Assembly: GCA_016182495.1 (NCBI GenBank)
Contig: JACPGK010000032.1
Coordinates: 23,917-87,916 of the forward strand
Reading direction: 5' to 3'
Length of the DNA: 64,000 nucleotides
Source of the DNA: Candidatus Kerfeldbacteria bacterium
GTDB taxonomy: Bacteria > Patescibacteriota > Patescibacteriia > UBA9570
This document shows positions 21,716-47,684 of this stretch, one piece after another. How positions within the stretch are numbered: position 1 is the stretch's first letter; each line of letters begins with the position of its first letter. Under the pieces are notes generated by a model, which did no database searches, was not told where the DNA came from, and saw only the letters and a program-made list of their open reading frames with translations. The position numbers were made by a program, and so were the translations under genes.

Positions 21716-21726
21716 TAGCACTCTCT

Positions 21727-25454: not shown

Positions 25455-25823
25455 TTATTCAAAATGCCAATACGGCCCTAGGGCTAACAATACTACTAGG
25501 CTAGTGATAAAAAAAATACTAAACCACCAATTCCAGCCGTAACTTAAAAAAGCCATCAAGCCAACTAGAGCAATAACATCGGCCATTGCCCAGGCAATAT
25601 ACTCCTGCTGTAAAATACGTTTAAACACAATCGCCAATAGCGCGCTCATTAAGCCCACAGCGATTAAAGCATACAGCATGGCAGTGGATTTTGTAGTGAT
25701 GTACGGCGTAGTGTACTGTAACCAATACGCTAGCGCAAAATAAACCAAGGTACTAGTCAACAGACTGGCCCATACAGTATACACGGCCGGCATATTACGA
25801 TGATTGATAATTGAATCAACCAT
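25455..25823 (-). CDS. Hypothetical small membrane protein
   Basis: 4-TM hydrophobic ORF in the same operon. Confidence 0.4.
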   Translation of the reverse strand: MVDSIINHRNMPAVYTVWASLLTSTLVYFALAYWLQYTTPYITTKSTAMLYALIAVGLMSALLAIVFKRILQQEYIAWAMADVIALVGLMAFLSYGWNWWFSIFFITSLVVLLALGPYWHFE

Positions 25824-26934: not shown

Positions 26935-28059
26935 TCAGTATAGCGCGAGATTAATTCGAATGTCACGTAACAGTTGAATATAAAAACTAACATTGTGCAC
27001 GGTGGCTAAGCGGGCAGCTAACGGTTCGTGTACAGAAAATAAATAACGCAGATAGGCTCGACTATAGCCGCTGGTGCACGTGGAACAATCACACAGTGGG
27101 TCAAGTGGTTGAGAATCAGTTTGATAGCTTAAATTATCAAGCGATAATTTAGTATAGTGCACCAGGCTTAAATTCTGTTCCACTAACTGTGAGGCAGTGT
27201 GTACATACACCTGGCCATGACGAGCGTTGCGGGTTGGTAACACACAATCAAACATATCTATCCCTCGCTTCACCGCTTGAAGAATTTGCTCTGGTTGACC
27301 TACGCCCATTAAATAGCGTGGCTGTTCAGCTGGTAATAATGGTACCGTCGCATCCAACACGTGATACATTATTTCTGGCGGTTCACCAACGGCTAAGCCA
27401 CCAATAGCATAACCATCAAACCCAATGGCGCGCAATTCACTGGCGCTGCGGGCCCGTAAATCAGGCCAAGTGGAACCTTGAACGATGCCGAACAGTAGAG
27501 ACCTTTCGCGGGACGTTTCTACACTATGTACCGCTCGACACCGTTCTGCCCAGTTGGTAGTTAAACGAACCGATTCTTCCACCTGGGCACGATTAGCTGG
27601 GTAGCCAGGAAAATAATCAAAACACATTCGAATATCTGAACCAATGGCTGCTTGAATATCCATGGCTAATTCTGGCGTGAAAAAAAATTCATGGCCATCA
27701 ATGTGCGAATTAAAACGCACGCCATCGGGTGATACCAAGCGCAAACGGGCTAAACTAAATACTTGGTAGCCGCCGGAATCTGTTAAAATTGGCTTAGTCC
27801 AGTGCATAAACTGATGTAAGCCACCTACCTGTTTGAGCACCTTTATACCTGGGCGTAAAAATAAATGATAGGTATTGGCCAAGATAATATCATTACCAAT
27901 GGTTGTTAAATCGCTGTTCGCTAAATGTTTAAGGCTGCCCCGAGTAGCAATGGGCATGAAGGCCGGTGTTGGCACCAAACCATGATCGGTGTGCAATTGG
28001 CCACTGCGGGCCTGCTGCCAGCGGTGAGTAATCGTGAACATCGTTTTAATTGGATTCAA
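26935..28059 (-). CDS. tgt: Queuine tRNA-ribosyltransferase
   Basis: DCVLPTRNARHGQ, GVGQPE and the CDCSTC Zn site. Confidence 0.9.
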   Translation of the reverse strand: MNPIKTMFTITHRWQQARSGQLHTDHGLVPTPAFMPIATRGSLKHLANSDLTTIGNDIILANTYHLFLRPGIKVLKQVGGLHQFMHWTKPILTDSGGYQVFSLARLRLVSPDGVRFNSHIDGHEFFFTPELAMDIQAAIGSDIRMCFDYFPGYPANRAQVEESVRLTTNWAERCRAVHSVETSRERSLLFGIVQGSTWPDLRARSASELRAIGFDGYAIGGLAVGEPPEIMYHVLDATVPLLPAEQPRYLMGVGQPEQILQAVKRGIDMFDCVLPTRNARHGQVYVHTASQLVEQNLSLVHYTKLSLDNLSYQTDSQPLDPLCDCSTCTSGYSRAYLRYLFSVHEPLAARLATVHNVSFYIQLLRDIRINLALY

Positions 28060-29815
28060 CCACTACCCCATCATCGGTAGCGGCTGGATCGGTATTGAGC
28101 TTGGTAGTCACTTGGTCGGTTTGGGTTTGCATTGGCTGATCGGTTGCTTGATCGGTAGCTGTAACAATGGCTTCGTTTACCAACACGACCAGTTTATTCA
28201 CATCACCTTTGCTTGGCGTAATGGATACTGAAAAATCGGCTTGTTTGGTAACACCACTATCAACTGATTTTAAAGTGAAGGTAACACTACGATCGCTGGC
28301 ATTGTAACTTAGTCGGTTGTCATCAGTATCAATAAAGGTAGTAGTATCGGGCAAGCTGGCTGTCATGGTAATGTTTTCCATAGTACTACCCGTGGCCGTT
28401 ACCAGCCAACGAATTGTATAGGTAGTTGTTTCTCCAACCTGTGGTGGAGTAGGGCCACTGCCAAGTTTTGTTAAGTCGTCATCGTAGTAACGACCAAATG
28501 ATGCCGCTGTTAAACTACCACTTAAAGTTGTGGTTACCGTGGCAATTTGCTCAAAACTCACCGGAATATCGGCTGTGTGAGCGCTCATTACTGCTAGAGT
28601 GGCAGTAATAGTACTGGCATCTTCTATGGCGGTATTGGGAACAACCAATTGATACCCCAGGGTAGCGGTTTGATTTGATTTTAATTCATCAATCGCCTCT
28701 AACGTTACTGCTGCTGAATCGACTGCCTCACCGCTAAATTCTAGCTGTAGAGTAACATCATCTAAGCTAACGGTTGAAGTATTTTCAATAGTAATATCGT
28801 AATCAATGGTTTCGCCAGGAGAAACAAATTCAGGCGCATTGAGCTGTAAGCGTAATTCTGGATTAATCACTGTAATGATTGTACTGGTTTCTGCTTGCAC
28901 ATTAAAAAAACCATCCGGTTCTAGTAAGCCTAACTGGACAATAAATTCTTCCGTACTGCCATCTTTAGCTGCCAGATCACCGCTCACCGTAACCGTGACT
29001 GAACTATTCTGATCAATTTGATCAAACACCCAAGTATGATTACTTTGAGTAGCGCTCGGATCAGCTGAACTCGGACTAAAGGTATCAGGATACTGCACGT
29101 ACGCTTTGACATTGGTGAGTGGTAAACTAGCCGTATTGGTAACTGTAAAAACATAATCAATCACTTCGCCAGTGCGGGCTTGTTCCGGAGCAGTCACCGC
29201 TACTTTCATAATTGAATCATTCAGTTGCATGGAGATATGACTGGACGTTTGAAAATCGGAACTAAAATTGACTGGCTGATAGGTAAATAGTACGGTGAAA
29301 TCTTTACTATCCCCTTTTTGACCAACCAGTTGACCAGTGAAATCAATAGTGGCACTGGCTCCGGCCGGTAATTGGCTGACTGACCAGCTGGTGGTGTTTG
29401 GCGCATTTGGTTGTGGTTGAGCAGATCGTAAATAAAATCCAGCCGGTAGCACTAATTCGATGTCGCCGTGGTCAATCGCTACCGAGCTGTTATTGGTATA
29501 TGTAATCGTCAACGCCACTTCGTCACCCGAGGCTACGGCCGCTGGTGCAGCTAGCGCAATAATCACATCGCTCGAGCTTACTCCCGGCCGACTAGCACCA
29601 AATACGATATAGCCCAAGGCTGTAGCCACCAGTGATAGCACCATAATGGCTAACACCAATAATCCAATTGGTTTACGCGCTGTGGTTGTACGACGTTCCA
29701 GGGTAGTCATATCAACAGCCCCTTGAGTATGATCGTTTTGATACAGTTTGATCAATTCATCGTGATGATCAACATTAGCAGTAGTTGCTGTGCTCACCTT
29801 TTTTTTCTTGGACAT
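28046..29815 (-). CDS. N-terminally membrane-anchored, Thr/Ser/Val-rich surface protein with DUF11/CARDB-like beta repeats
   Basis: Lys-rich cytoplasmic tail, a single TM segment, then repeated ...TVTNTASLPLTNV.../...VTVSGDL... modules. Confidence 0.5.
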   Translation of the reverse strand: MSKKKKVSTATTANVDHHDELIKLYQNDHTQGAVDMTTLERRTTTARKPIGLLVLAIMVLSLVATALGYIVFGASRPGVSSSDVIIALAAPAAVASGDEVALTITYTNNSSVAIDHGDIELVLPAGFYLRSAQPQPNAPNTTSWSVSQLPAGASATIDFTGQLVGQKGDSKDFTVLFTYQPVNFSSDFQTSSHISMQLNDSIMKVAVTAPEQARTGEVIDYVFTVTNTASLPLTNVKAYVQYPDTFSPSSADPSATQSNHTWVFDQIDQNSSVTVTVSGDLAAKDGSTEEFIVQLGLLEPDGFFNVQAETSTIITVINPELRLQLNAPEFVSPGETIDYDITIENTSTVSLDDVTLQLEFSGEAVDSAAVTLEAIDELKSNQTATLGYQLVVPNTAIEDASTITATLAVMSAHTADIPVSFEQIATVTTTLSGSLTAASFGRYYDDDLTKLGSGPTPPQVGETTTYTIRWLVTATGSTMENITMTASLPDTTTFIDTDDNRLSYNASDRSVTFTLKSVDSGVTKQADFSVSITPSKGDVNKLVVLVNEAIVTATDQATDQPMQTQTDQVTTKLNTDPAATDDGVVVESN

Positions 29816-29822
29816 GGCGATA

Positions 29823-30440
29823 TTATACTAAAAGAATATTGGCTTGTACATGTGCCGGGCCATGCTGTATCAACCAGCGCTGCATACTAGCCACAATGCC
29901 TTGCCATTGACTATTGGTTAAGCGCAACTTTTGCACGCTCTGATAAGGTGTACTGGTTAACCACTGGATAATTTTAATCACCTCGGACTGATTCGTTTGA
30001 GCGGCTAAATCATAGCCTAATACCCGAATCACTTTGCAAGCAAAACTACACAACACGGTGCGATGAGCTCCGGTTTGATCAATCCAGGCTAAAATTTCAT
30101 ACAGCAATTGGTATAATACCGTATCGGCGGCCCCTTCGGGAGTAAGATCACCTACTAATTGGGTACACCAATGAGCGGCCTGCCACGACTGTTGCTGGGC
30201 TGTAATATGTTTAAACCGATGCCGGATAACGGCGCCACCTATTTTTGGACGTTGCCGAGCAGCGATTAAATATAAATCAATTTCGGCAAACGGTTCTAGG
30301 CTGCCAGCTAGCTTTGATTGCAGTTTGCGTACGCCATGTCCACGGACAATTTGCTTACCGGCTGTTTCAGAATACACTGTGTATACTCGATCGGCTTCTC
30401 GCCAGGCGCGATAGTACAGCACAATCGCTCGAGTATTCAT
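29823..30440 (-). CDS. recO: DNA repair protein RecO
   Basis: N-terminal OB-fold pattern RAIVLYYRAWREADRVYTVYSETAGK...LEPF; typical length. Confidence 0.6.
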   Translation of the reverse strand: MNTRAIVLYYRAWREADRVYTVYSETAGKQIVRGHGVRKLQSKLAGSLEPFAEIDLYLIAARQRPKIGGAVIRHRFKHITAQQQSWQAAHWCTQLVGDLTPEGAADTVLYQLLYEILAWIDQTGAHRTVLCSFACKVIRVLGYDLAAQTNQSEVIKIIQWLTSTPYQSVQKLRLTNSQWQGIVASMQRWLIQHGPAHVQANILLV

Positions 30441-33313
30441 CGCTGCAATACCACCGATATTTTTGCCTGATTGACGGTTAATTCTACAGCGGCTGCATCA
30501 AGTTGAGTAGCTGGTTCCAACCGATTGGCCAGTACGCTGCGTTGTAATAATTCAGCCTGCTGACTGAATATACTCTGCAGCACTGGATCGCTAGTCATGT
30601 ACTGTAGCACCACCTGATCGTGAATACTTAAACCTTGTTGTTTACGCAAAGCATTAATTTGACGAACTAATTCTCGCAGCATGCCTTGCTGGGCTAACTC
30701 GGGAGTAATAACGGTATCTAATTGATAATCTGCCCCGGGCTGAATCTGCTGCACATTCACTTCTGCCGCCACTACGCTGATCAGCTCATTTGACCATTGC
30801 TCACTGTGCGGAACGGTAGCACTGGTTAATGGTTGACGCACTTTCAGGCCAGCGTGTTCACGCAGGGCCAATATTTTTTCTACGGCCTGACGCGCTAACG
30901 CCATCTGTTCCAGCACCGTGGCATCATAGTACGATTGATCAAAGGCTGGCCAATCTGCCAAATGCACTGAATCACCAGTACCACCCAACTGTTGATAAAT
31001 ATGGTCACTAATAAAAGGAGTAAATGGAGCTAATAATTTAGTGACGGTTAATACCACATAGCGCAAAGTAGCTAAAGTCGATTGAGCTTGATCGTCGGAT
31101 AATTTAATTCGATCACGACTACGCCGGATATACCAGGTTGATAATTCTTGAATAAAACTTTCCAATTGATGAGTGGCGCTGGCTAAATCGTACTGTTCCA
31201 TTGCCGTGGTGACCTGTTGTACTGTTTGCTGGCACAAGCTAACAATCCAACGATCCATAATGTGCTCCGTGCTTGGTTGGGCTGATGGCGTTTGATCACG
31301 GGCAAACAGTTGATAGAACGTAAAGATATTCCACAATGTTAACAGCACTTTTTTCATCACCAAATCAACTCCTTTTTCGGAAAAACGTAAATCTTCTGCC
31401 TGCACTACCGGTGAACTCATCAAATAAAACCGTAAAGCATCGGCTCCGTATTTATTTAATACCAATTCGGGTTCAGGATAATTTTTTAAACGTTTACTCA
31501 TTTTTTTACCATCTTCAGCCAATACTAACCCATTCACAATCACGTTACGAAAAGCCGGTTTATCAAATAACGCCGTGCTTAACACCATCAAGGTATAAAA
31601 CCAACCACGAGTTTGATCTTGCCCTTCGGCAATAAATTGGGCCGGAAAGTTAGCCTCAAACTCGGCTTTATGTTCAAAAGGATAGTGTTGTTGCCCATAC
31701 GGCATGGCACCAGATTCGAACCAACAATCCACTACCTGGGGGATGCGCTTAAACTGTTTGTTATCCTTTGTAATCACAATTGGATCAACATATTGTTTAT
31801 GCAGATCAGTTACGGTGACGCCGGATAATTCAGCCAATTCAGCCATACTACTCACACAAATCACCTCACCGTCAGCTGCCTTCCAAATAGGCAATGGCGC
31901 GCCCCAATAACGATCACGTGAAATGGCCCAATCTTTGGCTCCGGCTAGCCACTTACCAAACCGGCCAGCTTTAATATGATCGGGCAGCCAGTGAATTAGG
32001 TCGTTATTTTTAAGCAGACGTTCTTTTAGATTTGTCACCCGAACAAACCAAGAAGTTGTGGCATAGTTCAACAAGGGAGTATCACAGCGCCAACAGTGCG
32101 GATAGTTATGGCGATACGTTTCAGTGCGCCACACTAGACCAGCTGATTGGACTAATTCCAATAACTTAGCTTGCCCCCGTTTCACTGGTAAGCCAGCCAA
32201 CGGTTTAGTTAACTGGTTAAAGGTACCGTCCATATCAACATCCATCACCATTGGCAAATGATTGGTTTGGGCTGCTTGCATATCAATATCCCCATAGGAA
32301 CCGTTAATAGTGACAATGCCCGTACCCTCGGTGACTTCAACATAATCGGCGGCAAACACATGGTACACGTTGGGATTATTTTTTACTTCCGGTACATCAC
32401 GGTAATAGTCAACAATCGGTTGATAGGCTAACCCAACCAGCTGATCACCTTTGAATTCATCAATCACTTGGTAATGAGTAACGTTCTGCATCACTGTGGC
32501 CAGGCGATCTTTCACGCAAATCACATAGTCGTCACCCACTTTAACTTTCACATACGTATGCTGTACACCAACCGATAATCCCATGGTAGTTGGCGTGCTC
32601 CAGGGTGTAGTGGTCCAAGCCAGTAAGTAGGTGTTTGGTTGATTGAGCACTTTAAATTTCCAGGTGACGGCGATATCATCAACCTCGCGATAGCCTAAAG
32701 TGACTTCAAAATTCGATAACGGCGTGACACAACGTGGGCACACATGCATGGCTTTTTTACCTTCGTAAATTAAGCCTTGTTTATATAATTCACTAAATAC
32801 CCACCAGACCGATTCCATAAAAGTGGGATCCATAGTGCGGTAGTCGTTATCCATATCCACCCACCGCCCTAATCGCTCAATGGTACTGCGCCATTCTTTG
32901 GTGTAGCGTAACACACTATCGCGGCAGGCATCGTTAAATTTAGCCACCCCAATGGCTTCAATATCCTGTTTGGTTTTTAGGCCCAATTCTTGTTCAATCA
33001 AATTTTCCACTGGCAAGCCGTGACAATCCCAACCCCAACGCCGTTCTACTCGATAGCCACGCATAGTGGCATAACGTGGTACGACATCTTTGATAGTGGA
33101 AGCAACAATATGACCATAATGGGGTAAGCCGGTAGCAAAGGGCGGGCCATCATAAAATACAAAGGAACGATCAACTGGTCGCTGGCTGACGGATCGTTCA
33201 AAAATGTTTAGTTGTTTCCAACGCTCACTGACTTGTTGCTCAAGTTGGGCAAAATTTGGTTGCGGCATAATAAAATTTGCCCGAACTATAGCATTGTTTG
33301 GCGTGAATGGCAA
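30437..33313 (-). CDS. ileS: Isoleucine--tRNA ligase
   Basis: PHYGHIV (HIGH), GWDCHGLPVE and KMSKRLKN (KMSKS), with the domain order of a class I editing synthetase. Confidence 0.85.
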   Translation of the reverse strand: MPFTPNNAIVRANFIMPQPNFAQLEQQVSERWKQLNIFERSVSQRPVDRSFVFYDGPPFATGLPHYGHIVASTIKDVVPRYATMRGYRVERRWGWDCHGLPVENLIEQELGLKTKQDIEAIGVAKFNDACRDSVLRYTKEWRSTIERLGRWVDMDNDYRTMDPTFMESVWWVFSELYKQGLIYEGKKAMHVCPRCVTPLSNFEVTLGYREVDDIAVTWKFKVLNQPNTYLLAWTTTPWSTPTTMGLSVGVQHTYVKVKVGDDYVICVKDRLATVMQNVTHYQVIDEFKGDQLVGLAYQPIVDYYRDVPEVKNNPNVYHVFAADYVEVTEGTGIVTINGSYGDIDMQAAQTNHLPMVMDVDMDGTFNQLTKPLAGLPVKRGQAKLLELVQSAGLVWRTETYRHNYPHCWRCDTPLLNYATTSWFVRVTNLKERLLKNNDLIHWLPDHIKAGRFGKWLAGAKDWAISRDRYWGAPLPIWKAADGEVICVSSMAELAELSGVTVTDLHKQYVDPIVITKDNKQFKRIPQVVDCWFESGAMPYGQQHYPFEHKAEFEANFPAQFIAEGQDQTRGWFYTLMVLSTALFDKPAFRNVIVNGLVLAEDGKKMSKRLKNYPEPELVLNKYGADALRFYLMSSPVVQAEDLRFSEKGVDLVMKKVLLTLWNIFTFYQLFARDQTPSAQPSTEHIMDRWIVSLCQQTVQQVTTAMEQYDLASATHQLESFIQELSTWYIRRSRDRIKLSDDQAQSTLATLRYVVLTVTKLLAPFTPFISDHIYQQLGGTGDSVHLADWPAFDQSYYDATVLEQMALARQAVEKILALREHAGLKVRQPLTSATVPHSEQWSNELISVVAAEVNVQQIQPGADYQLDTVITPELAQQGMLRELVRQINALRKQQGLSIHDQVVLQYMTSDPVLQSIFSQQAELLQRSVLANRLEPATQLDAAAVELTVNQAKISVVLQR

Positions 33314-36300
33314 TTAGCCAGGAAATTCAAATAATTGTTTGGCTTGAATGGCTTTATTTTTTAAGCGCTCAACCAACGTAGCCATACCCGCGGGAGTATC
33401 TAAGTGAAAAGCAGCCACTAATGCTGGTCCGCGCAAGGCTTTGGCGCGGTCATCATCGCGCAGGCCATCACGTAATTTTGTGACAATAGGTTTGATAAAT
33501 ACTCCTTCGTTTGTTAAAGCTTCGCGTAAAGCTGTTACTACCGCAGGCGATTTGATCCAGTCAGGAACTTGTTTGCCGAGATTACCAAATTTAACCCATT
33601 GTTTTGCTTCAGCTTTTAATGCGTCTGGTTCAACTGCCACGGGTTCAGCAACCGGTACTACTGCTTCCTCGACTGGAGCTGGAGTTTCTGCTGCCGACGC
33701 TGCCTCGTCTGCAATTGGAACAGCTGCTTGAATTTCAGCTGGTGCTGCTGCAGCCGGCGCTTCAACTGGTTCAGCCGCAAGTGCTTCGGCCACAATTGGT
33801 TTACGTGATTTTCGTGCTGGCTTGTTTACGTCTTGAACAACTGGTTCATCAACTCTAGTTTTAGCTTTAACTCTACCTTTTTTAATTGGTATTGCTGGGG
33901 TGGCAGCTGGTTCTTCAACTGCAACAGCTGCTGGGGCAGGTGCTGGCACTGGTTCAGCTGGTGGTTGGGGTAAATCACGCAGAATTGTTTTTAAGTTTAC
34001 TTGGTTAGGTTTTTTGCCTAGTGTTGTTAACAAAGCAGCCACCGCTGGTTGATACGGTTCATCATTAGCTTGCACTAAACCAACGGCTTTGAGAGTATCG
34101 GCCACTGTTCGACCGGCGTTGTTATCGGGTGATAATGCTAATTGCAAACTATCCAAATTGGGTTTGCGGCGAGTTTCTTTAACATGCACCAAACCTACTC
34201 GTAAGGCTTCAATTAAAGCTGGATGATTCAACATTGTTCTCAAGTCTATAAATTCTGGCAAGGCATTAACTTTAGCTTGTTCTCCATTGAATAGTTCAGC
34301 TAGGTTGCCAAGACCTTTATGTTCATCAACCCCTGCTGCTACTACCACTCGCGGAGCTTCTGTAACCCAAGGCCTAGCCCCTGCTGCACTTGACCGACCG
34401 CTGCGACCGGATTTTTTGCCAAGATCAATTGGATAATCAAATACATCAGCTGCCAAAGTTTTACCGTTCTTAATATTAGTCAGCACTGTTCCTAAACGCT
34501 CGTTGCTAAATTGATGTTCAGCTGAAACTAAACCACTAGCCCGCTGCACTGCTACACCAATATTTTCTGTGGCTGCTGGCTGTACGGTAGCATGTAACTC
34601 TTGAACAGCCTGGGCAAGGGTTTGCGCCTGTGGTGCTTGTAGTAATTCATTGGGTAAATCGAGTAAGCGGGCAAAAATGAAATCGGTAAAGGTGCCGCCA
34701 AAATTGCGTACAATCACGCGCATGGCCTGGGCTAATTGATTATGTCGCTCAAGCTCTGCACCGGTTGGTTCAGCTTCACCACTATCCCGGTAAATATTAG
34801 CTTCGCCGCGATTGGCTCGTTCCACAATTTCAGTCAGTCGTTCAGTGTTCGGTGTGTCATCTTCTACTAAGCCAGTGGCTATCCCCAAATCCTGCTCAAA
34901 CCGACGATCAACCAAATTACGATTCAACCGCCGTTCGTTCAGCAAATGATCAATGATTCTAATCTGATCAACTGGGTTAGCAACCAGAGTTGTTATTCGA
35001 TGGGTGATATCTTTGCCTAATTTATCACCAAAAATTTTAGTAATTCTTTCCTGTTTACTAGCTAACCGTTCGGGTAAATCCACTTGCGCTCTAAAAAATC
35101 CATCCAGCACTTGGCGAAAGCCATTGATAGCTCCTATTAATTTATTATAATCACGTTGAGCTTGCTCACTGGCGCGAGCATCAGCTGGCGGTAATTCCAA
35201 TACCTTTCCATCAGCTTGAATTAAGGCCAAACGTGGCTCAATAGTATCAGTTAAAACCGTTCGGTAAGCTTGGGCTCCAGCTACATCGAGTGGTGGTTTT
35301 TTAGGAATTTTCGGCACCTCTACATGAGCTATAAACCAGCGTAACCGAGCTTTCAAAGCACCATTTAATACGTAGGAGCGATTATCTAATTCACGCTGAC
35401 ATAGCGCCGCAAAGCTTGCCGGATCGGTAAAGCCCCTACCACTTGGATTACGCACCGGTGCGCGTTTCAGTTCATCAGGCATAGCTGTTTGCACGGTATT
35501 CAAAGTAGCTTGTAAAGCAACCAGCCGTTGCTTGAGCCCTTGTTCAACTGTCCGAGTAGTATCATCAGATACCCGCGAAGCTGCTGAATCGGCGTTTTCA
35601 CAGTGTTTCTTCACTTCGCCAATTTGTACAAAAACTTCGTTGGCTGGCTGGAGTACTTCAGTGTTCAGCCGACTGACTAATGCAGTAGCTGCAGCCACTT
35701 GTTCAGTGGTAATTGGAGTTCGTTCAGAGGGAGAAGGTGCACCTGAAGCAACTGGGTTGGCGACGGTTGTCTGTGCTAAATCAGCAACGCACTGCTTTAC
35801 AATTGTGTCGGCACCGGCGATGATGTTTGCTTCGGATACAGTGGCTAAATCGGTAATGGTGTGACCATTAAATTCGGCGGCTGGGATAGTAGTAAGAGCA
35901 TCAGCTACTTGTGTCCGGAAATACTCTAGCACTGCTAATTGTTGTGATAGTGTTAAACCACGAGTGGTCATGGCTTCGGTAAAGCCACGTACGAACACAT
36001 TACCATATAAATCACGCAACTCACTTAATTGGCGATCCAGCTGAAGTTGTTCTTCTGGAGTATGAAAGGCTATATCCATTCTAAATAAAGGTTTTTGATT
36101 TTTGGCTAAACGTTCAGCCATGGCGGTTACTTCAGCTTCATTTACAAGATGAGTTGCGGAATCAACTAAACCGAGAGCAGCTAATAACGGTAGGTCTAAA
36201 GCTACGTTACGTAATGGCTGCCATTGTAGGCTCACTCGCAATGCCCTTACCGTATTGACTAACCGGCGCATGGCGGCGGCTTGCTTATCGGGATTAGACA

Positions 36301-39300
36301 AATGAGTACGTAAGCTTGCTAACAATGGAGTAAAAAAACTGTCATCAAAGTCAAAGCTAGTTCGTAAATCTTCGATGATAGCCGTGGTAGGATCAGTGGT
36401 TTCAGGTATCAGTTGAATGATATCTCGTTCAAAATTAACGGCTCGTGCCACCATGGCAGAAACATCGTCCGCTAGTACAGCTACGCGCTGATCGGGAGTA
36501 GCCGCGGTTAAAGCCAGTCCGCGTGGGCCAACCAAATGACGATTCCAACTGCCAATAAATGCAAGCAAAGCATTACGTTGTGATTCTAACTCTGGAGCAG
36601 CGCCCGTTAAAGCAAGCATCAATTGATCGCGAAATGATTCGCCAAACGTAGTTCCAACTACATCGCGTAGATGATTAATTTCACTGCGTAATTCGGCTGG
36701 GGTTTTTTTCAATTCAAAAATGCTAGCTGACCGTTGAATGATTCGGGTAAAAATATCTTGTAACCGCCGACGTTGGAGTCGACCAAGTCGATCGACAATA
36801 CGAACTTCAGCAAAAAAATCCATGTTGTTATCGGCTGTCACGGTTGATCCATCCGCTAACCGAAAGTTCCGTAATTGCTGCAGCAGATTATCTAACATCT
36901 CAACCACTACGTTATCAGTAAAAGGAACATTAGCGTCAGTTTCGGCAGTGCGTATGGCAGCTTGTAAGTCATTAGAAAAGCGTTCACCAAGCACCTGTTC
37001 TAATTGACCACCCAGTTGCCGAATACGTTCAGCAGGATTGGTTGGTACACCGAGATCAAAAATATTAGGCTGACGATCAATAATATCATACATTAAGCGC
37101 TGCCACACCGCTGGATTATCAGTACCATCTGCCTGGTGCACGCCAATGGCTTGAAAAAACTCACCCCGGGTAGCTTGGCTTACTGTTCGATTACCAGATA
37201 AGCGGTACGTGGTGATGGCCTGAAGGGCATGCCGTAACATTGCGGTAATTTCGCTGTTAGGAATGCTTTGCTGGCGCTGATGTTCAATGCCTTGAATGGT
37301 TGTTTCAAAACGACCCATGAAAGCCTGGCCAACAATGGCTTGTAATTGATTAAATTGGCGGCCTAAGTCTTGTAATTCGGCTTGTTGAGCAGCATTGCCC
37401 ACAGGGGCTGTAGCCACCCGTCGTTCCAGCGCCTGGCGAGCTAACTCGGCTGGGTTAGGTGCCGCTTGAGGGGGATGTGGTGGTACTGGGGCACCTGGTG
37501 CAGCGCCAGCAGCAGCAGCCGGGCCAGCACCAGCCGCGGTTGGCAGGGCAAAAATATCAGCCGCCGTTGCCATGATGCCAGCACATACTTGGCGCACCCG
37601 AGTTGGTACTAACTGACCACGGACATCGACTAAACCAACGTGTTGTAAAAATTCAACCCCTAATTGCATACCGGTTTGAGCAGCTAGTACGGTTCGCGCT
37701 TGAACAATAGCTAAATGATACATCCCTAACCGTTCAGCCGCAGTATAATTACGGCCGGTAGCTACTTCACTGGCTTGCACAGCGGCTGCCAAAGCAGTAA
37801 AAAAGTTATCACCAAAAATCTGCTTGATACGATTCACCTCTTGTTCTACCGCTTGGCCTTGCTGACGTTCTTGATTAATGGTCACTAATACATTTGGCGT
37901 ACCACGAATAATACCTTGCAATACTCGTCGTAACGGTGCCCCGGTGGCTAAGCGGCCACTGGTATCAGTCAACCCTAAATGTTCTAATAATTCATTACCA
38001 ACCCCTAAACCAGGGTGTAATCGCATCACTGCTTGTGCCTGTACCACAGCAAAATTATACATCACGACGCGGGCAGGGCGATTGAATTGGTGGCTAGTGC
38101 GAGTAGCTTCTTGCTGAATTTCAGCATCAAGCGCTGTAATAAATGGATCGCCAAAATGATGACGTAGTTCTGCTAAAGCATGATCGTGTGCTTCATAACT
38201 AGCCACGGCTGAAGCAAACTGACCTTCCAGTGCGGTAATGGCGGCATGTAATCCAGTCACCTGTGTTTGCATTGCCAAATACACTGGGGGGTTTAAAAAT
38301 TGAGGAAGTTGCGTTACTGTGGTTACATCCAGGTGCAGATCGTTTATTGGATTAAGCGCAGTGGCTCGTAAATTAGCCAATAACGTTTGCCATTCAACCA
38401 AGGTACCATTACCACTGGCCAAGCGGGCTTGGATATCGGTAGCCAATGGCTGCCAGGCAGTGGTTACTGCTGTAGCCAGACGGGTAGTGCGATCACAAAT
38501 GGTTTGATCTAACAAGCGGCCATGAGTTTCGGTTTGTTGATTAATAGCCGTCAAACGATCATTCAAGGTGGCTCCATTCTGTAAACGCAGTGACCCAACT
38601 CCCGAAAAAGTTGCCATACAATGTATGCGATACAGTTCCCGTAACTTATTTAATCGATCTTTAGCATCATGTTCTTTGGTGCGTACCTCGGCAGTAAGTT
38701 CGTTACGTTGCCAATGTTGTTGCAGTTCTGTCATTAACCGTTGCACGGCAACTAAATCTGGCTGGGCTTGAGTTTCAACTTGGCTATCAGTCTGTTCAGC
38801 TTGAGCTATTGCTTCTGGATGATCCAAATTAACTGCCCTCACCTGTTCATCGGTACTTATGATATGTTCCGAATGATTAGCCGAACGGTTATTATCAGCA
38901 ATAGCTGATGCTCCCAACATTTGTTCACCCAAAATACCGCCAGCTAATATTACACTGGCGCCTAACTTATCAACTAAGCCTGCTTCCCAGCGATCAGCCG
39001 CACTGGCTAAGGCCAGTTCAGTCAATACCCGACTAGTGCCCACTGGTTGATAAATATCTTGCAATAATAGTAAACGCACATCAGGATTAGTAGACACTAT
39101 GTCACCAACAATGGTATCGCCGGTTGGGGCTGGTGCCGCCGCGACAGCAGCGGCTTCGCGTATCGCTCGAGCTTGTTCTACTAATTGCATCCACCGTTGA
39201 TTAACTCCAACATAGTCTGGGGCGCCGGAACCATCAACAAAGCGCAATTCGTGACTACGAATAAAGGCAGTATCTTTTCCTTGAAAAGCTTCATGTAAAG

Positions 39301-41854
39301 CAGCTGATTTATCTAAGTGTGGTCCATTATCATGTAATATATTTCGAGTGGCGCGTTCTAACCGAGCCACCACCACGGCTGGATCTTCGGCAGCGTTAAT
39401 TAAGCCTTGCTGTTGAGCTTGTAAAAATAATTCTAACCGAGTTTGGCGCCAGCCAGTGGCTACCTTGGCGGCTTTGTCTAAATATTCACCGGGTTGAATA
39501 GCATTAGGAGCAATGTTGAAGTCAGACCCACTAACTTGAATATCTTGGGCATTGGCTAACCCCATTTTTTCTAAAATTACTTTAATTGATGGTGTGGCAA
39601 ATAACCGCTCCATAAAATTACCACCCGTTAATGGCGTAGCTGGGGGCGGTGGTGGAGCAGCCGCCGTAACGCCTGAATCAGTTAATGCCAAGGTCGTAAT
39701 GGGTTTGCCATCAAAAGCAGATTTTATCACTACATGATTCTGATCAGTTTGTTGAATAATAAACTGGGCGGCTTTATCGTGCAGGTCAGTTAATTTAGCT
39801 TTTATTTCTTCGGAGAGTAATGCAATTGGCTGTCCTACCGGCACTGTTTCACCGGCGTTATCTTTAAATACTTCCAACAACCCTTGGGCACTAACTGCTA
39901 AACGATATTGCAAAGTATCGGATAGTTTTACCACAAAGGCTTTATCTGGTGATAGATCCACTAGGGTAGGTTCAACGGCGCGCATCACGGTTTCTCCTGC
40001 GTCAACTGTATCTACCGTAATACGCATTTCTCCCAAAGGTTTGCCAGTTTGCTCATCAAATAATTTTAAATTCGAACCATCGGCTTTAACCTGCAAATTA
40101 TTAGGATCAATGTTACTGGGTAATTCACTACTGGTCATAACCTGATGCGCTTGATTAAACACAGTAATGCGACCATCAGCGGATACTTCTGCTACAGCTG
40201 ATTGACCGCCTACTGTTAATTGAGTTGGGTGTGGTAATGATGGTGCCGGCGGCTTTGACCAGGGTAGATGTTCTTTAAGATAAGTAACAGGCCAAGTAGC
40301 TGCCAATGCATCCATGGCCATAGCGGCTGCTCCACCAAAGGCGCCACTCACAATAGCCGATCGCACTATAGCGGCTCGTTCACCTTTTTCTAAATGTTTT
40401 TTAAGATGAGCTTCGTTGGCTTTTAATGTCAATAAATTAGTTGAAGCAATCCGAGCCAGAGTTTGTTTAAGATGATCCTGCTGACCAGTATTGCTAGTAG
40501 CATTATGCCGTTCCAAGGCTTGATCAAAGGTCATCACGGCGCGCTGAAAATTATCTAACAAATCATTTTGCGCTTTAAAACGATTATCGAGTCCGAACGA
40601 AATATAATCTTGACGCTCATCACCTTTGGCTAGGCGCGTGCGCAATAACCGATTTTGCACATCGGCAATCACCGCATACGATTGTTCTAAGGTATGCTCG
40701 ATACTATTCCCACTGCCAATAACGCCTTGCAAAGCTTGCGTAACGGCTGCTAAATCGCGATTGATATCGGAAGCACTACGCACAATTCCAGCTGGGCCTG
40801 CGCCAACAGCGGCATCAATCCGACGCTGACGTTTACGTTCTTTACCATTAAAATATTCACGCACCGCTCCGGCGGCTGCTCCAGCCCCAAAGGCCACTGC
40901 TAAACCACCGCCACCGGCCAGTAGACCAGCGCCCAAGGTGCCACCAATCATCAAGCGGTTAATACCAAGACGAGTAGCAGCTCCCCACACTGTGCCACTC
41001 AATAACACCATCCGACGAACTCGGCCCCACTTGGTTTGATCGTGCCGATAATCGGTTGAGCTTAATACTTCTACTGATTGCGCTTGGGCTAGTTGAGCTA
41101 CTTCAGAACGTAAAATAAAACGGAGATGATTTTCTACGGCTCGTTTTATATTGGGATCAGCGGCGTTAACATATTCTGGATCCCCCGGTTCACCAATGTC
41201 GAGCAGATTATCAAAATCGAGTTCGGCTACTATTTTATTAATACCAGTCCGATAATCGACGTTAGCTAATAATTCTGGCAATTCCAATTCACCGCGCTGA
41301 AAGCGTTCAATTAAATTTCTAAAAGCAACATTACGATCATTAGCCAACTCTAGATACTGTTCTAAACGTTGCTTGCGAGCTTGCCGTTCTAAAGCATCCT
41401 TGGCTAACGCCATCATATCGGACTTATGAGCTATGATACTAGCTTTTCTCTCTTTAACATCAGTGCCTAACCCTTGACCAAATACTTCAATAGCTTCGTG
41501 CCAGCGGTTGGCAATATGGCGATGTAATTTGTACCACGAGGTGGATCGTTTTTTCTGATTGAATTCATGACGTGCCTCAACATTGGAACGTAATGTAACA
41601 TGACGTTCAATTTCTGCTACCACTTCGGCTAGTTCACTGCTTTTTAAGCCTAGCTCATTAGCATGATCAACTAAATCATCAATCACGTCGTCTTCGAGTA
41701 AAGCAGAACTAGCTAACGATTCAGCTCGATTGCGATTTTGTAAATGATTACGCAATTGATCAGCACTAATGTTTTCACCTGACCGCCGGCCAGCTCGGCT
41801 AGTTTCAACCTGTTGCTGCAATGGGCGACGAAATCGTTCAGCAGATATAGCCAT
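33314..41854 (-). CDS. Giant (2,846 aa) membrane-anchored protein of unknown function, helix-rich with Pro-rich hinges, internal repeats, an Ala/Pro/Glu-rich spacer and a roughly 110-aa C-terminal domain
   Basis: Single uninterrupted ORF. Gly-zipper TM pair around residues 285-330 and a third hydrophobic segment around residue 500; no catalytic motif recognised. Zero-nt gap to ileS. Confidence 0.8.
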   Translation of the reverse strand: MAISAERFRRPLQQQVETSRAGRRSGENISADQLRNHLQNRNRAESLASSALLEDDVIDDLVDHANELGLKSSELAEVVAEIERHVTLRSNVEARHEFNQKKRSTSWYKLHRHIANRWHEAIEVFGQGLGTDVKERKASIIAHKSDMMALAKDALERQARKQRLEQYLELANDRNVAFRNLIERFQRGELELPELLANVDYRTGINKIVAELDFDNLLDIGEPGDPEYVNAADPNIKRAVENHLRFILRSEVAQLAQAQSVEVLSSTDYRHDQTKWGRVRRMVLLSGTVWGAATRLGINRLMIGGTLGAGLLAGGGGLAVAFGAGAAAGAVREYFNGKERKRQRRIDAAVGAGPAGIVRSASDINRDLAAVTQALQGVIGSGNSIEHTLEQSYAVIADVQNRLLRTRLAKGDERQDYISFGLDNRFKAQNDLLDNFQRAVMTFDQALERHNATSNTGQQDHLKQTLARIASTNLLTLKANEAHLKKHLEKGERAAIVRSAIVSGAFGGAAAMAMDALAATWPVTYLKEHLPWSKPPAPSLPHPTQLTVGGQSAVAEVSADGRITVFNQAHQVMTSSELPSNIDPNNLQVKADGSNLKLFDEQTGKPLGEMRITVDTVDAGETVMRAVEPTLVDLSPDKAFVVKLSDTLQYRLAVSAQGLLEVFKDNAGETVPVGQPIALLSEEIKAKLTDLHDKAAQFIIQQTDQNHVVIKSAFDGKPITTLALTDSGVTAAAPPPPPATPLTGGNFMERLFATPSIKVILEKMGLANAQDIQVSGSDFNIAPNAIQPGEYLDKAAKVATGWRQTRLELFLQAQQQGLINAAEDPAVVVARLERATRNILHDNGPHLDKSAALHEAFQGKDTAFIRSHELRFVDGSGAPDYVGVNQRWMQLVEQARAIREAAAVAAAPAPTGDTIVGDIVSTNPDVRLLLLQDIYQPVGTSRVLTELALASAADRWEAGLVDKLGASVILAGGILGEQMLGASAIADNNRSANHSEHIISTDEQVRAVNLDHPEAIAQAEQTDSQVETQAQPDLVAVQRLMTELQQHWQRNELTAEVRTKEHDAKDRLNKLRELYRIHCMATFSGVGSLRLQNGATLNDRLTAINQQTETHGRLLDQTICDRTTRLATAVTTAWQPLATDIQARLASGNGTLVEWQTLLANLRATALNPINDLHLDVTTVTQLPQFLNPPVYLAMQTQVTGLHAAITALEGQFASAVASYEAHDHALAELRHHFGDPFITALDAEIQQEATRTSHQFNRPARVVMYNFAVVQAQAVMRLHPGLGVGNELLEHLGLTDTSGRLATGAPLRRVLQGIIRGTPNVLVTINQERQQGQAVEQEVNRIKQIFGDNFFTALAAAVQASEVATGRNYTAAERLGMYHLAIVQARTVLAAQTGMQLGVEFLQHVGLVDVRGQLVPTRVRQVCAGIMATAADIFALPTAAGAGPAAAAGAAPGAPVPPHPPQAAPNPAELARQALERRVATAPVGNAAQQAELQDLGRQFNQLQAIVGQAFMGRFETTIQGIEHQRQQSIPNSEITAMLRHALQAITTYRLSGNRTVSQATRGEFFQAIGVHQADGTDNPAVWQRLMYDIIDRQPNIFDLGVPTNPAERIRQLGGQLEQVLGERFSNDLQAAIRTAETDANVPFTDNVVVEMLDNLLQQLRNFRLADGSTVTADNNMDFFAEVRIVDRLGRLQRRRLQDIFTRIIQRSASIFELKKTPAELRSEINHLRDVVGTTFGESFRDQLMLALTGAAPELESQRNALLAFIGSWNRHLVGPRGLALTAATPDQRVAVLADDVSAMVARAVNFERDIIQLIPETTDPTTAIIEDLRTSFDFDDSFFTPLLASLRTHLSNPDKQAAAMRRLVNTVRALRVSLQWQPLRNVALDLPLLAALGLVDSATHLVNEAEVTAMAERLAKNQKPLFRMDIAFHTPEEQLQLDRQLSELRDLYGNVFVRGFTEAMTTRGLTLSQQLAVLEYFRTQVADALTTIPAAEFNGHTITDLATVSEANIIAGADTIVKQCVADLAQTTVANPVASGAPSPSERTPITTEQVAAATALVSRLNTEVLQPANEVFVQIGEVKKHCENADSAASRVSDDTTRTVEQGLKQRLVALQATLNTVQTAMPDELKRAPVRNPSGRGFTDPASFAALCQRELDNRSYVLNGALKARLRWFIAHVEVPKIPKKPPLDVAGAQAYRTVLTDTIEPRLALIQADGKVLELPPADARASEQAQRDYNKLIGAINGFRQVLDGFFRAQVDLPERLASKQERITKIFGDKLGKDITHRITTLVANPVDQIRIIDHLLNERRLNRNLVDRRFEQDLGIATGLVEDDTPNTERLTEIVERANRGEANIYRDSGEAEPTGAELERHNQLAQAMRVIVRNFGGTFTDFIFARLLDLPNELLQAPQAQTLAQAVQELHATVQPAATENIGVAVQRASGLVSAEHQFSNERLGTVLTNIKNGKTLAADVFDYPIDLGKKSGRSGRSSAAGARPWVTEAPRVVVAAGVDEHKGLGNLAELFNGEQAKVNALPEFIDLRTMLNHPALIEALRVGLVHVKETRRKPNLDSLQLALSPDNNAGRTVADTLKAVGLVQANDEPYQPAVAALLTTLGKKPNQVNLKTILRDLPQPPAEPVPAPAPAAVAVEEPAATPAIPIKKGRVKAKTRVDEPVVQDVNKPARKSRKPIVAEALAAEPVEAPAAAAPAEIQAAVPIADEAASAAETPAPVEEAVVPVAEPVAVEPDALKAEAKQWVKFGNLGKQVPDWIKSPAVVTALREALTNEGVFIKPIVTKLRDGLRDDDRAKALRGPALVAAFHLDTPAGMATLVERLKNKAIQAKQLFEFPG

Positions 41855-41856
41855 AG

Positions 41857-42168
41857 TTATGGTTGAGTAAATTCAACATACTCTTGCTCAAATTGTTTGA
41901 TGGCCGTTTGTAACTGTTGCGATAAATCTGGAATGCGACTATTTAAAAAAGTTGTCACCTCGTTTTGGGGTGCTTCGCGTTGTATTAAGCTGGCATACTC
42001 AACGGCATCATTATCGGATAATTGTTCGGTGATAATAGTTTCTAAACGCTGCTCTAATTGCAACGATAAATCCATAATCATTTTTTCTTCCAGGGCTTCA
42101 GGCAACACCGTGGCATGCACGGTGCGAACAAGATTCTTTAAAAAGGCGTATAAACGTGGGTCAGTCAT
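41857..42168 (-). CDS. Small acidic helical protein (103 aa) encoded 2 nt upstream of the giant gene
   Basis: ORF translationally coupled to the giant ORF (stop 41857, giant start 41854); sits directly behind a consensus promoter. Confidence 0.5.
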   Translation of the reverse strand: MTDPRLYAFLKNLVRTVHATVLPEALEEKMIMDLSLQLEQRLETIITEQLSDNDAVEYASLIQREAPQNEVTTFLNSRIPDLSQQLQTAIKQFEQEYVEFTQP

Positions 42169-42180
42169 AAATAACAGAAC

Positions 42181-42208
42181 ATTATATACAAAAAACCAAT
42201 TTTGTCAA
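42181..42208 (-). promoter_or_regulatory. Near-consensus sigma-70 promoter (TTGACA, 16-nt spacer, TATAAT on the minus strand) driving the small-ORF / giant-gene operon
   Basis: The reverse complement of 42203-42208 is TTGACA and that of 42181-42186 is TATAAT; the start codon at 42168 implies a very short leader. Confidence 0.55.
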
Positions 42209-42258
42209 GAGCAAATGACAAATAATTATTAACTCACTGATACACAAAAATAATTATA

Positions 42259-42843
42259 TCACAATTTTTTACTTCTGGCAAGCGGCGGCGGAAAAATTTC
42301 AAAATAAATTCCAAAATTTGTTGAGTCTCCGGCACGATGAGAATAAAACTTGTCGTTATTACATTGTGTGCAGGCGCGCAGCATTTCGATGTGCCCCAGT
42401 GGCACTCCACAGCGTTTAGCTTGGTGTACATTTTCTACTTGAATATCAATATCGTTATAACAACATGGGCCGATCGCCGGACCAATGCCAACGTAACTAT
42501 CACGCGCGCCTAATTTAATTAGGGCTTGCGGTAAAATTTGTTTGATCGTTCCTAAAAAACCAGCATGCAACACACCACCAAAACCGCGTTTGGGATTATA
42601 TACCAAAATCGGTACGCAATCAGATACACCAATACGTAAGCGGATGCCTGGTTGTCGGGTAATTAAACCATCGGTTTGTGGCAATATGTTAACGGCTGCA
42701 TTCGTTACCACGGTAACGGTATTGCTATGCACCTGTTCAGCTTTCACATGATACGGTTGGCGGTGCTCGGTGTGACGCGTAGAAATACCGTGATCAATTG
42801 TTGAAAACTGTTGAAATAATTTGAATTGAATTAAATCAGCCAT
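42259..42843 (-). CDS. pgeF: Peptidoglycan editing factor PgeF / YfiH (DUF152 laccase-domain) family
   Basis: DHGISTRH, VHSNTVTVV, DGLITRQPGIRLRIGVSDCVPIL and HAGFLGT motifs. The start is moved to MADLIQF (42843), giving an 8-nt overlap with the upstream gene. Confidence 0.75.
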   Translation of the reverse strand: MADLIQFKLFQQFSTIDHGISTRHTEHRQPYHVKAEQVHSNTVTVVTNAAVNILPQTDGLITRQPGIRLRIGVSDCVPILVYNPKRGFGGVLHAGFLGTIKQILPQALIKLGARDSYVGIGPAIGPCCYNDIDIQVENVHQAKRCGVPLGHIEMLRACTQCNNDKFYSHRAGDSTNFGIYFEIFPPPLARSKKL

Positions 42844-46770: not shown

Positions 46771-47217
46771 ATGCCTACGTTGGTACACAATCAGCGTCTT
46801 AAATTCGACTATGAAATTTTGGAGAATTTCACAGCTGGTATTGTATTAACCGGTGCTGAAGTAAAATCATGCAAGCGTAAACAAGTGAGCTTACAAGGGG
46901 CTTACATTATTATTGAAGGCGGTGCGGCCTGGTTAAAAAATGCTCGCGTCAGCCCCTACCAAGCCAACAATCAACGACACTACGACCCGTTACGCCTGCG
47001 TAAATTACTGCTGCGCCGAGTAGAACTAGCTAGCCTAACTGGAAAACTCCAACAGGCTGGCTTGACATTACTGCCGGAATCCTTGTATACTCAAGGCGGT
47101 TTAGTGAAAGTTAAACTGGTTCTAGTGCGCGGCCGTAAAAAAGTTGATAAGCGCGCTTTGATCAAAAAACGAGATGTTGATCGTCGCATTGCTCAAGCTT
47201 TGCGCCGAGCAATATAG
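46771..47217 (+). CDS. smpB: SsrA-binding protein
   Basis: KFDYEILENFTAGIVLTGAEVKS and a basic C-terminal tail. Confidence 0.9.
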   Translation: MPTLVHNQRLKFDYEILENFTAGIVLTGAEVKSCKRKQVSLQGAYIIIEGGAAWLKNARVSPYQANNQRHYDPLRLRKLLLRRVELASLTGKLQQAGLTLLPESLYTQGGLVKVKLVLVRGRKKVDKRALIKKRDVDRRIAQALRRAI

Positions 47218-47286: not shown

Positions 47287-47684
47287 GGGGATGTGTATAT
47301 CATTGATAGGTTCGTTCTTTATAGTATCGGCTAGCAATGCCCAGCATCATTTCAAAGGCTGAAACTTCTAAGTGCAAACTTAGTTCAAAAAGTAAAAGCC
47401 AAGGTGGCCGCGTTATCTAACGCGTTCCGTCCAGCTTTTGCTCCTGTTGTAGCTTAATTCTACAACCATCCAGCAGGCTGATCTCTGATAGGCCTGTGCG
47501 GGTGTCATATTCATCGGGGTCGGTAGCTGTGTAGCTGGTGCTTAGCTGCCTAAACTATGGCCAGATCGGTTAACACTGTTTGGTGTCATTTTCAGGTGTT
47601 AGCTTAAATTCAAACGGCACTACGCTAGTAGATGATATTATCAAGCCAACCTAGACGCGGGCGTAATTCCCGCCATCTCCACCA
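47287..47684 (+). ncRNA. ssrA: tmRNA (SsrA), standard one-piece; predicted tag ANLVQKVKAKVAALSNAFRPAFAPVVA
   Basis: 3' end GACGCGGGCGTAATTCCCGCCATCTCCACCA (T arm plus acceptor plus CCA); the 5' GGGGATG pairs with CATCTCC; the resume context TAAGTGCAAAC resembles E. coli TAGTCGCAAAC; an in-frame TAA lies at 47455; the gene is adjacent to smpB. Confidence 0.7.

Follow-up and report, generated by a model that had tools for sequence, protein, structure and literature searches.

The DNA considered here is a 64-kb stretch (the window) from the genome of a groundwater Candidatus Kerfeldbacteria bacterium, which belongs to the Candidate Phyla Radiation (CPR). The window holds a two-gene cassette that encodes a small protein resembling DUF5663 and a modular protein of 2,846 amino acids (aa) in which no enzymatic signature was found. 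In our best explanation, which is drawn from sequence, the pair is a clade-specific accessory cassette, and ~1,900 aa of the giant protein are a lineage-specific extension that arose for the most part as a single ~105-aa five-helix domain was amplified in tandem. All coordinates are positions in the window unless a relative's locus is named, and every feature of the cassette and of the adjoining ileS gene lies on the minus strand. An earlier note on this DNA had proposed a CPR host, which is borne out, and had pointed to the Saccharibacteria, from which the Kerfeldbacteria host differs.

The giant open reading frame (ORF; 33314..41854) encodes 2,846 aa from an ATG and was deposited with a Candidatus Kerfeldbacteria metagenome-assembled genome (MAG) as the hypothetical protein HYV33_05520. 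It is preceded by a small ORF (41857..42168) that encodes an acidic, helical protein of 103 aa with a pI of 4.4, and the junction between the two reads TAA-CT-ATG, leaving a gap of 2 nucleotides (nt). The earlier note had described this pair and its spacing correctly, and every string that it quoted is present at its place. It had also assigned a near-consensus promoter to the pair; the site found is a perfect sigma-70-type promoter, TTGACA-16-TATAAT (42181..42208), that matches the consensus at 12 of 12 positions. The distance from the end of the -10 box to the ATG of the small ORF is 12 nt, so that the leader would be very short. A second promoter-like site, TTGCCA-17-(TG)TATAAT (42253..42281, minus strand, 11/12), is located ~70 nt upstream of the perfect promoter within the 3' end of the YfiH-like gene, and the cassette may have tandem promoters. 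No RNA elements were detected in the cassette locus with Rfam.

Translation initiation in this genome has features of its own. A Shine-Dalgarno motif within 22 nt of the start was found in none of the ~51 window genes, and in ~17 of them a TATAAT-, TATACT- or TATAGT-like box ends 5-16 nt before the ATG (for example at the starts of 6754..7173, 10779..12506, 28046..29815 and 49439..51244). Judging from these starts, leaderless or near-leaderless mRNAs and stop-start coupling within operons seem to be the rule. Translation of the small and giant ORFs is likely to be coupled because they are separated by a 2-nt stop-start spacing in a genome that lacks Shine-Dalgarno sites. The evidence supports the view that the two ORFs form a real unit of two genes whose translation is tightly coupled and which is headed by a strong promoter.

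It is barely credible that the giant ORF is an artefact, be it a chimeric or mis-assembled sequence or a frame that is decaying or does not code for protein. The chance of an open frame of 2,846 codons at the base composition of the window is ~1e-71, and, save for low complexity in its Ala/Pro/Glu spacer, the gene has no long DNA-level repeats by which an assembler could be misled. At the protein level the repeats retain a common fold signature, and the N-terminal 940 aa are conserved at the same locus in other species. The intact 2,846-aa ORF was recovered on a 90-kb Logan contig from another sequencing run, and parts of it are present on three shorter Logan contigs from other runs, one of which holds the first 5.2 kb. 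The identical small protein is encoded on four Logan contigs from four sequencing runs. The locus is present in the runs SRR12113385, SRR12113390, SRR12113419 and SRR12113422. All four Logan contigs are 100% identical to the window DNA and all sequences come from the metagenomes of one study, so that these assemblies are not fully independent. The GC content (0.461) and the GC content at third codon positions (GC3, 0.326) of the giant gene are both within ~1 standard deviation of the other window genes, and a recent horizontal transfer was rejected in view of these native values.

The giant protein contains an internal helical repeat of ~105 aa that is present in four robust, two semi-robust and up to five weaker copies. 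This internal repeat is real. The robust core, R1-R4 (aa 1223-1326, 1336-1438, 1497-1602 and 1611-1716; 36707..38188), consists of copies that detect one another at 1e-8 to 2e-17 in leave-one-out searches with hidden Markov models (HMMs), and R6 (aa 1827-1927) and R9 (aa 2374-2475) join the profile on iteration. With the six-copy HMM, R0 (aa 1040-1150; 38405..38737), R8 (aa 2258-2360) and R10 (aa 2510-2628) scored above all 300 shuffles and R5 (aa 1718-1828) above all but three, and five control segments from the N-terminal 960 aa were not distinct from shuffles. R5 and R6 occupy 36074..36703 and R8, R9 and R10 occupy 33971..35083; the stretch at aa 1928-2257 (35084..36073) is helical and has no significant match to the repeat profile. 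Within the robust core there is an Ala/Pro hinge (aa 1439-1496) that includes GAPVPPHPPQAAPNP at aa 1454-1468. When aligned, the 11 copies share FGxxF close to their beginning, a central GLVDxxGxL and a terminal ΦFxΦ. The copies are only 12-31% identical and appear old and diverged, and an AlphaFold2 (AF2) model of the repeat gave a five-helix unit with a predicted local distance difference test (pLDDT) score of 78.8. The earlier note had described more than 2,300 aa of helix-rich sequence here; the helical character holds, but the region is not undifferentiated, as it contains these tandem copies.

An Ala/Pro/Glu-rich low-complexity spacer (aa 2629-2731; 33662..33970) follows R10 and leads into a basic C-terminal domain (aa 2732-2846; 33317..33661; pI 9.35), in which the string KQWVKFGNLG... 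begins at aa 2751 and which ends in ...LFEFPG. This domain had been taken in the earlier note as a distinct unit of ~110 aa, but it is perhaps a further repeat copy, as the protein stops right after a motif of the ΦFxΦ type and the score of the last 115 aa against the six-copy HMM is reached by 11 of 300 shuffles. The domain may be the last copy, R11, set off by the spacer. When the repeat profile was used in a full HMMER scan of 1.84 billion representative proteins, only the query itself was found. From these searches and those described below, neither the ~105-aa repeat nor the N-terminal module appears to belong to a described family, and the repeat would be previously undescribed.

To place the cassette among related genomes, the species representatives of GTDB were scanned with ileS, which gave 80 loci; this genome scan covered the surroundings of ileS. 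A counterpart is locus L006 (ileS 64% identical), where the order argS, GT4, YfiH, small ORF, gene A, gene B, a 262-aa gene, ileS, recO, DUF11, tgt matches the backbone of the window. The small ORF of this locus is homologous to that of the window (E 3e-9), and gene A (1,213 aa) matches the giant protein at aa 56-539 with an E-value of 8e-67 and at aa 743-934 with one of 7e-14 (phmmer). The same groundwater study also yielded the Kerfeldbacteria MAG L013, whose gene A matches the latter region at 7e-18; this gene is truncated and, together with gene B, lies directly upstream of ileS. The giant protein and gene A of L006 are 30% identical over 940 aa and 41% identical around the Gly/Ala segments and their basic flanks. 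The N-terminal module of the giant protein can therefore be assigned to the gene A family by its significant homology, its chromosomal slot and its small-ORF partner. The homology is not full-length, as aa 940-2846 have no significant similarity to the C-terminus of gene A, to gene B or to the 262-aa protein. The synteny of small ORF, giant ORF and ileS, for which the earlier note had suggested a search, is thus found in part: the small ORF and the N-terminal 940 aa recur at the same slot, and the protein that carries them is a gene A product of ~1,200 aa rather than a giant. In L006 and L013 alike, the last 115 aa of gene A outscore 500 of 500 shuffles with the repeat HMMs of the giant (6.8-9.5 bits), which weakly suggests that the ancestor had a single terminal repeat copy that was later amplified in the lineage of the window. 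Another idea, that gene A, gene B and the 262-aa gene had fused to give the giant, was rejected; the summed lengths are similar, but no homology was detected with HMMs, hhalign or shuffles.

Gene B encodes a family of 940-1,130-aa proteins (L006 6283..9111, 943 aa; L013 2374..5766; L007 2..1285; L008 1..705) that is absent from the window and is always found just upstream of ileS or of the 262-aa gene in the relatives, including L007 and L008, where it is upstream of ileS. It lacks a signal peptide and a transmembrane (TM) segment, and none of its Pfam matches reaches the threshold. The L013 gene B product is internally duplicated, and its N-terminus is weakly DnaJ-like (PF00226, E 4.8e-4, below the cutoff), with HAD in place of HPD. 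The records for L005, L006 and L008 are labelled 'uncultured Gammaproteobacteria bacterium', but their ileS, gene order and cassette match the Kerfeldbacteria, and the labels of these Third Party Annotation assemblies look to be wrong or to be placeholders. Other relatives lack the cassette: L011 has the order GT4-YfiH-ileS, and in L012 a NUDIX gene fills the slot. At L009 (3..8792; ileS 59% identical), the slot holds a 1,139-aa ORF that belongs to no family, a 571-aa VWA protein and a 1,017-aa Tubulin_2-like protein. None of these three large proteins matches PADLOC, and together they have the look of another accessory system that occupies this variable island. Because distant relatives lack the cassette at this position, it would be specific to a subclade and would occupy a slot of variable content within a backbone of housekeeping genes.

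Searches beyond these loci returned little. A word-index protein search with the full-length giant protein found only the query, a weak negative as the tool also missed the L013-type homologue, and the same search with the profile of the N-terminal module (A2) found nothing, not even the query, and is equally weak. JGI metagenome scans with A2 and a further profile, A3, gave no match, nor did an IMG/VR scan with A2 or tblastn of the cassette proteins against phages and plasmids. PDB sequence searches with the giant protein, A2, the repeat profile A4 and A5 produced only noise. The family, protein and PDB searches are in line with the earlier note in that no characterised full-length homologue was found. 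Beyond the three to five MAGs in which it was seen, the family may have further members, since the sensitive whole-library search was made with the repeat profile, the word-index search misses homologues and the genome scan was centred on ileS.

The nearest label for the small protein is DUF5663 (PF18908). The window protein aligns to model positions 9-83 of 84 with 17.4 bits (E 0.007) and its L006 homologue scores 17.7 bits; both cover nearly the whole model, and both fall below the gathering cutoff of 23.7 bits. A precomputed annotation of the identical protein lists PF18908, and DUF5663 was not mentioned in the literature that was searched. The word-index search with the small ORF returned only the query, and among PADLOC and PHROGs the only match was to LeoB (E 0.014, 12.3 bits), which is not significant.

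The N-terminal module of the giant protein can be divided into several segments. Residues 1-282 (41009..41854) are Arg-rich, have a cytoplasm-like composition and are helical by low-confidence secondary structure prediction; this segment is conserved in L006 gene A. A conserved pair of Gly/Ala-rich, weakly hydrophobic stretches follows at aa 283-333 (40856..41008), with a GGGG turn and flanking basic clusters, and is a putative membrane hairpin whose halves extend only ~13 residues on each side of GGGG. The stretch quoted in the earlier note corresponds to aa 288-331 and had been called a glycine zipper, but it has no GxxxGxxxG and no Pfam Gly-zipper match, only small-xxx-small spacing. Residues 334-490 (40385..40855) are basic (pI 9.7) and helical and include the conserved motif RQDYISFGxxNRFxAQ. 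The third conserved Gly/Ala-rich segment, aa 494-521 (40292..40375), spans ~23 residues in each of the three homologues, and the positive charge is greater on its N-terminal side, a bias that fits an N-in/C-out orientation. It is followed by a region of variable length at aa 522-742 (39629..40291), in which a linker rich in Pro, Thr and Ala precedes a low-Arg segment rich in beta-hairpins, and which ends in PPPPPATP (aa 734-741). The conserved helical domain shared with gene A of L006 and L013 is at aa 743-934 (39053..39628). In agreement with the earlier note, a motif scan of the giant protein found no P-loop or HExxH. LPxTG, GxSxG and strict GxxxGxxxG are absent as well, Pfam gave no family at E <= 0.1, and NCBIfam gave one spurious match (15.9 bits against a cutoff of 287). 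The predicted arrangement of an anchoring module, hinged helical repeats, a spacer and a basic terminal domain is that of a structural rod or stalk.

We infer the membrane insertion, topology, partner binding and function of the giant protein as follows. The Gly/Ala segments would hold the protein in the cytoplasmic membrane, its N-terminus on the inner side and all that follows the third segment on the outer. The small protein, co-translated with it, would bind or chaperone the cytoplasmic N-terminal domain, and the repeat array would serve as a spacer or stalk by which the terminal domain is held away from the cell. The resulting role could be that of a surface fiber or of attachment; host attachment or effector delivery in particular is speculative. 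Membrane insertion is favored by the conservation of the Gly/Ala segments and their basic flanks, by the length and charge bias of the third segment, and by the linker and low-Arg segment that come after it, so that tethering is probable as a prediction. A crude composition log-odds score, trained on the cytoplasmic and N-anchored proteins of the window, rates aa 1-282 (-0.12) and aa 334-493 (-0.10) as cytoplasm-like and aa 521-740 (+0.02) as exported-like. This last region is low in Arg, as is the DUF11 surface protein of the same window; aa 522-742 and the Ala/Pro/Glu spacer are the only segments of the giant that score as exported-like. The whole picture, a non-enzymatic, membrane-tethered segmented rod that projects from the cell with a small acidic partner acting on its cytoplasmic domain, is one that we hold tentatively and at somewhat less than even confidence.

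Several results weigh against this picture. Hydrophobicity was compared within the genome using 19-aa sums on the Hessa scale and the Kyte-Doolittle maximum, with 22 window proteins that have obvious TM or signal-anchor segments as a reference. The reference proteins range from -4.8 to +0.1 (Hessa) and from 2.0 to 3.1 (Kyte-Doolittle), and soluble window proteins from +4.2 to +12 and from 0.8 to 1.65. The best segments of the giant protein reach +3.3 and +4.8 on the Hessa scale, with a Kyte-Doolittle maximum of 1.57, which places them below all 22 clear TM proteins and in the soluble range; by this measure the protein has no TM-typical segment of ~19 aa. A signal peptide is also lacking, and no match was found to adhesin or surface-repeat families (Ig-like, cadherin, DUF11, RTX, LPxTG-anchored). 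The repeat region scores as intermediate (-0.03 to -0.05) and is rich in Arg and Leu and poor in Lys, with an L+E+R+Q content of 32% like that of ClpB and ileS. Single-sequence AF2 of aa 1-1150 gave a pLDDT of 40.5, too poor for any fold or hairpin. The relatives' gene B, which has no signal peptide and in L013 a weak J-like domain, hints at cytoplasmic partners. Of the membrane anchoring proposed in the earlier note, the hydrophobic segments are present and conserved, but their hydrophobicity is marginal and anchoring is unproven; its view of an envelope-anchored, extracellular protein is further weakened by the missing signal peptide and the intermediate, Arg-rich repeats.

Several of these observations would also fit a giant protein that is a cytoplasmic, at most membrane-peripheral scaffold, in which the Gly/Ala segments are in-plane or re-entrant anchors or soluble Gly-rich linkers; this is the main alternative, which we consider doubtful though worth keeping in view. 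The weak hydrophobicity, the short hairpin halves, the missing signal peptide, the ClpB-like composition of the repeats and the character of gene B all agree with it. In its fuller form, to which we give the same limited credence, the entire 2,846 aa including the repeats would be inside the cell with the small partner, and the relatives' gene B product would be part of the same assembly. Against a scaffold stand the third segment, with its conserved length and N-in/C-out charge bias in three of three homologues, and the Pro/Thr/Ala-rich linker and exported-like low-Arg beta segment beyond it. A fourth TM segment at aa 958-986 that would return the chain to the cytoplasm was rejected, as it is a weak stretch that is not conserved in L013, and the repeats score as intermediate rather than as clearly cytoplasmic. 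An improbable alternative is that the locus is an accessory conflict, defense or effector cassette in a variable island upstream of ileS; it is just as improbable that, within such a cassette, the N-terminal module is a delivery or anchor part and the fast-evolving C-terminal region a specificity or effector part. This would account for the variability of the slot, which in the clade is filled by the cassette (window, L006, L013), by VWA and Tubulin_2-like large genes (L009) or by a NUDIX gene (L012), or is empty (L011), and for the C-terminal ~1,900 aa that have no counterpart in the relatives' gene A, save possibly one terminal repeat-like domain. It is weakened by the lack of PADLOC, PHROGs, phage or plasmid matches for any cassette protein, those of the relatives included, by the lack of toxin, nuclease, NTPase or protease motifs, by the native GC and GC3, and by the old and diverged repeats, which are unlike polymorphic-toxin modules.

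The adjoining ileS gene (30437..33268) encodes 943 aa from the ATG at 33268 and is a neighbor from the conserved backbone that lies outside the cassette. In the earlier note the giant ORF was joined to ileS without a gap and the two were thought to be co-transcribed. The TTG at 33313 that abuts the giant stop is merely the first possible start in the ileS frame, and TIGR00392 aligns only from residue 18 of the ORF that begins there. The most likely start is ATG 33268, because the gene call on the Logan contig gives an ileS of 943 aa that begins 45 nt after the stop of the giant ORF. The 45-nt spacer contains a promoter-like site, TTGCCA-17-(TG)TATAGT (33285..33313), that has an extended -10 and matches at 10 of 12 positions. 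A promoter of its own is the most likely arrangement for ileS, given that Shine-Dalgarno sites are lacking, that -10 boxes occur near ATGs and that the preceding stop is 45 nt away. A functional operon in which the giant gene and ileS are co-transcribed and co-regulated for a biological reason is very improbable, even though the genes share a strand, no intrinsic terminator is predicted between them, so that read-through is possible, and the cassette adjoins ileS in this window and also, by way of gene B or of the 262-aa gene, in L006, L007, L008 and L013. The spacer with its promoter-like site just upstream of the ATG speaks against it, as do the -10 boxes 5-16 nt before many ATGs in a genome without Shine-Dalgarno sites and the relatives that lack the cassette and keep the same argS-GT4-YfiH-ileS-recO backbone. 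By its position and likely promoter, ileS looks to be an incidental neighbor.

Other features of the window lie apart from the cassette. A full-length tmRNA (47287..47684, plus strand; Rfam 76 bits) that was not reported by ARAGORN adjoins smpB (46771..47217). There are two ClpB-like paralogues (19142..21721 and 22282..25047, minus strand) with a small methyltransferase-like gene between them. A long N-terminal extension of the 921-aa copy includes a strongly hydrophobic segment near residue 72 and suggests that this is a ClpB-like ATPase anchored in the membrane. Directly upstream of its gene are ORFs of 129 and 122 aa (25038..25427 and 25455..25823, minus strand) that have strongly hydrophobic segments and no Pfam match.

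The giant protein can be compared with several known systems. The spectrin repeat is ~106 aa long, and its helical bundles form rods in tandem. The ~105-aa helical unit of the window, arranged head to tail with hinges, would likewise act as a length-setting rod, but it matches neither Pfam Spectrin nor a three-helix-bundle fold. The 'periscope'-type stalk-repeat proteins of Gram-positive bacteria are beta-rich, often have near-identical DNA repeats, and carry signal peptides and LPxTG anchors. They share with the giant protein an anchor, a long array of a single domain, a terminal functional domain and a copy number that varies between lineages, which here would be one possible copy in the relatives and up to 11 in the window. 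They differ from it in that its repeats are 12-31% identical with no DNA repeat, and in that it has no signal peptide and no LPxTG. LXG polymorphic toxins of the type VII secretion system (T7SSb) have small helical Lap partners. By analogy only, the cassette also places a small acidic helical protein of ~100 aa upstream of a large protein with a helical N-terminal ~250 aa and a lineage-variable C-terminus. There is, however, no LXG or WXG100 match, no toxin domain and no T7SS gene in the window, and the internal Gly/Ala hydrophobic segments do not suit a secreted toxin.

Giant proteins have also been described in other ultra-small bacteria. In the CPR predator Vampirococcus lugosii, the ten longest proteins are 1,392-4,163 aa long, are inferred to be membrane or surface attachment proteins and carry WD40, PKD, DUF11, integrin and fibronectin domains (PMC8080830). 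This precedent among the longest Vampirococcus proteins supports a surface role (PMC8080830). The giant surface proteins of the CPR resemble the window protein in their host, size class, lack of a catalytic signature, putative tether and proposed role in attachment. Unlike the Vampirococcus proteins, the window protein has no adhesion domains, is all-helical save for one beta segment, is built on a private repeat and is doubtfully anchored. The giant genes of Omnitrophota encode proteins of >10,000-30,000 aa that bear many TM helices and, besides SecA_DEAD, also peptidase or carbohydrate-active domains (bioRxiv 10.1101/2023.11.21.568195). They too are very long, mostly unannotated, metagenome-derived ORFs of ultra-small bacteria for which TM predictions are unreliable; the window protein, with 2,846 aa, has no SecA, peptidase or carbohydrate-active domain and no strong TM segment. 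What it has in common with the CPR and Omnitrophota giants is no more than their general type.

As it stands, the cassette is a well-documented orphan giant ORF of a CPR MAG rather than a demonstrated new system, and, with its domain boundaries, homologues and repeat profile on record, it can serve as a curated target. It is unlikely, in our estimate, that the full proposal will hold, namely that the five-helix unit of ~105 aa represents a novel domain family and that the cassette encodes a CPR surface fiber of a new kind, tethered by a weakly hydrophobic Gly/Ala helical bundle, assembled by a DUF5663 partner of its own and tuned in length by amplification of the stalk repeat in single lineages, from one copy in the relatives to about eleven here. 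If it did hold, the giant protein would be an example of one that grows by amplification of a private helical domain. The surface-fiber reading, if true, would for the first time set DUF5663 in a functional context, and it would make the cassette a candidate host-contact structure of the Kerfeldbacteria, and a candidate for how one lineage of these bacteria contacts hosts or surfaces.

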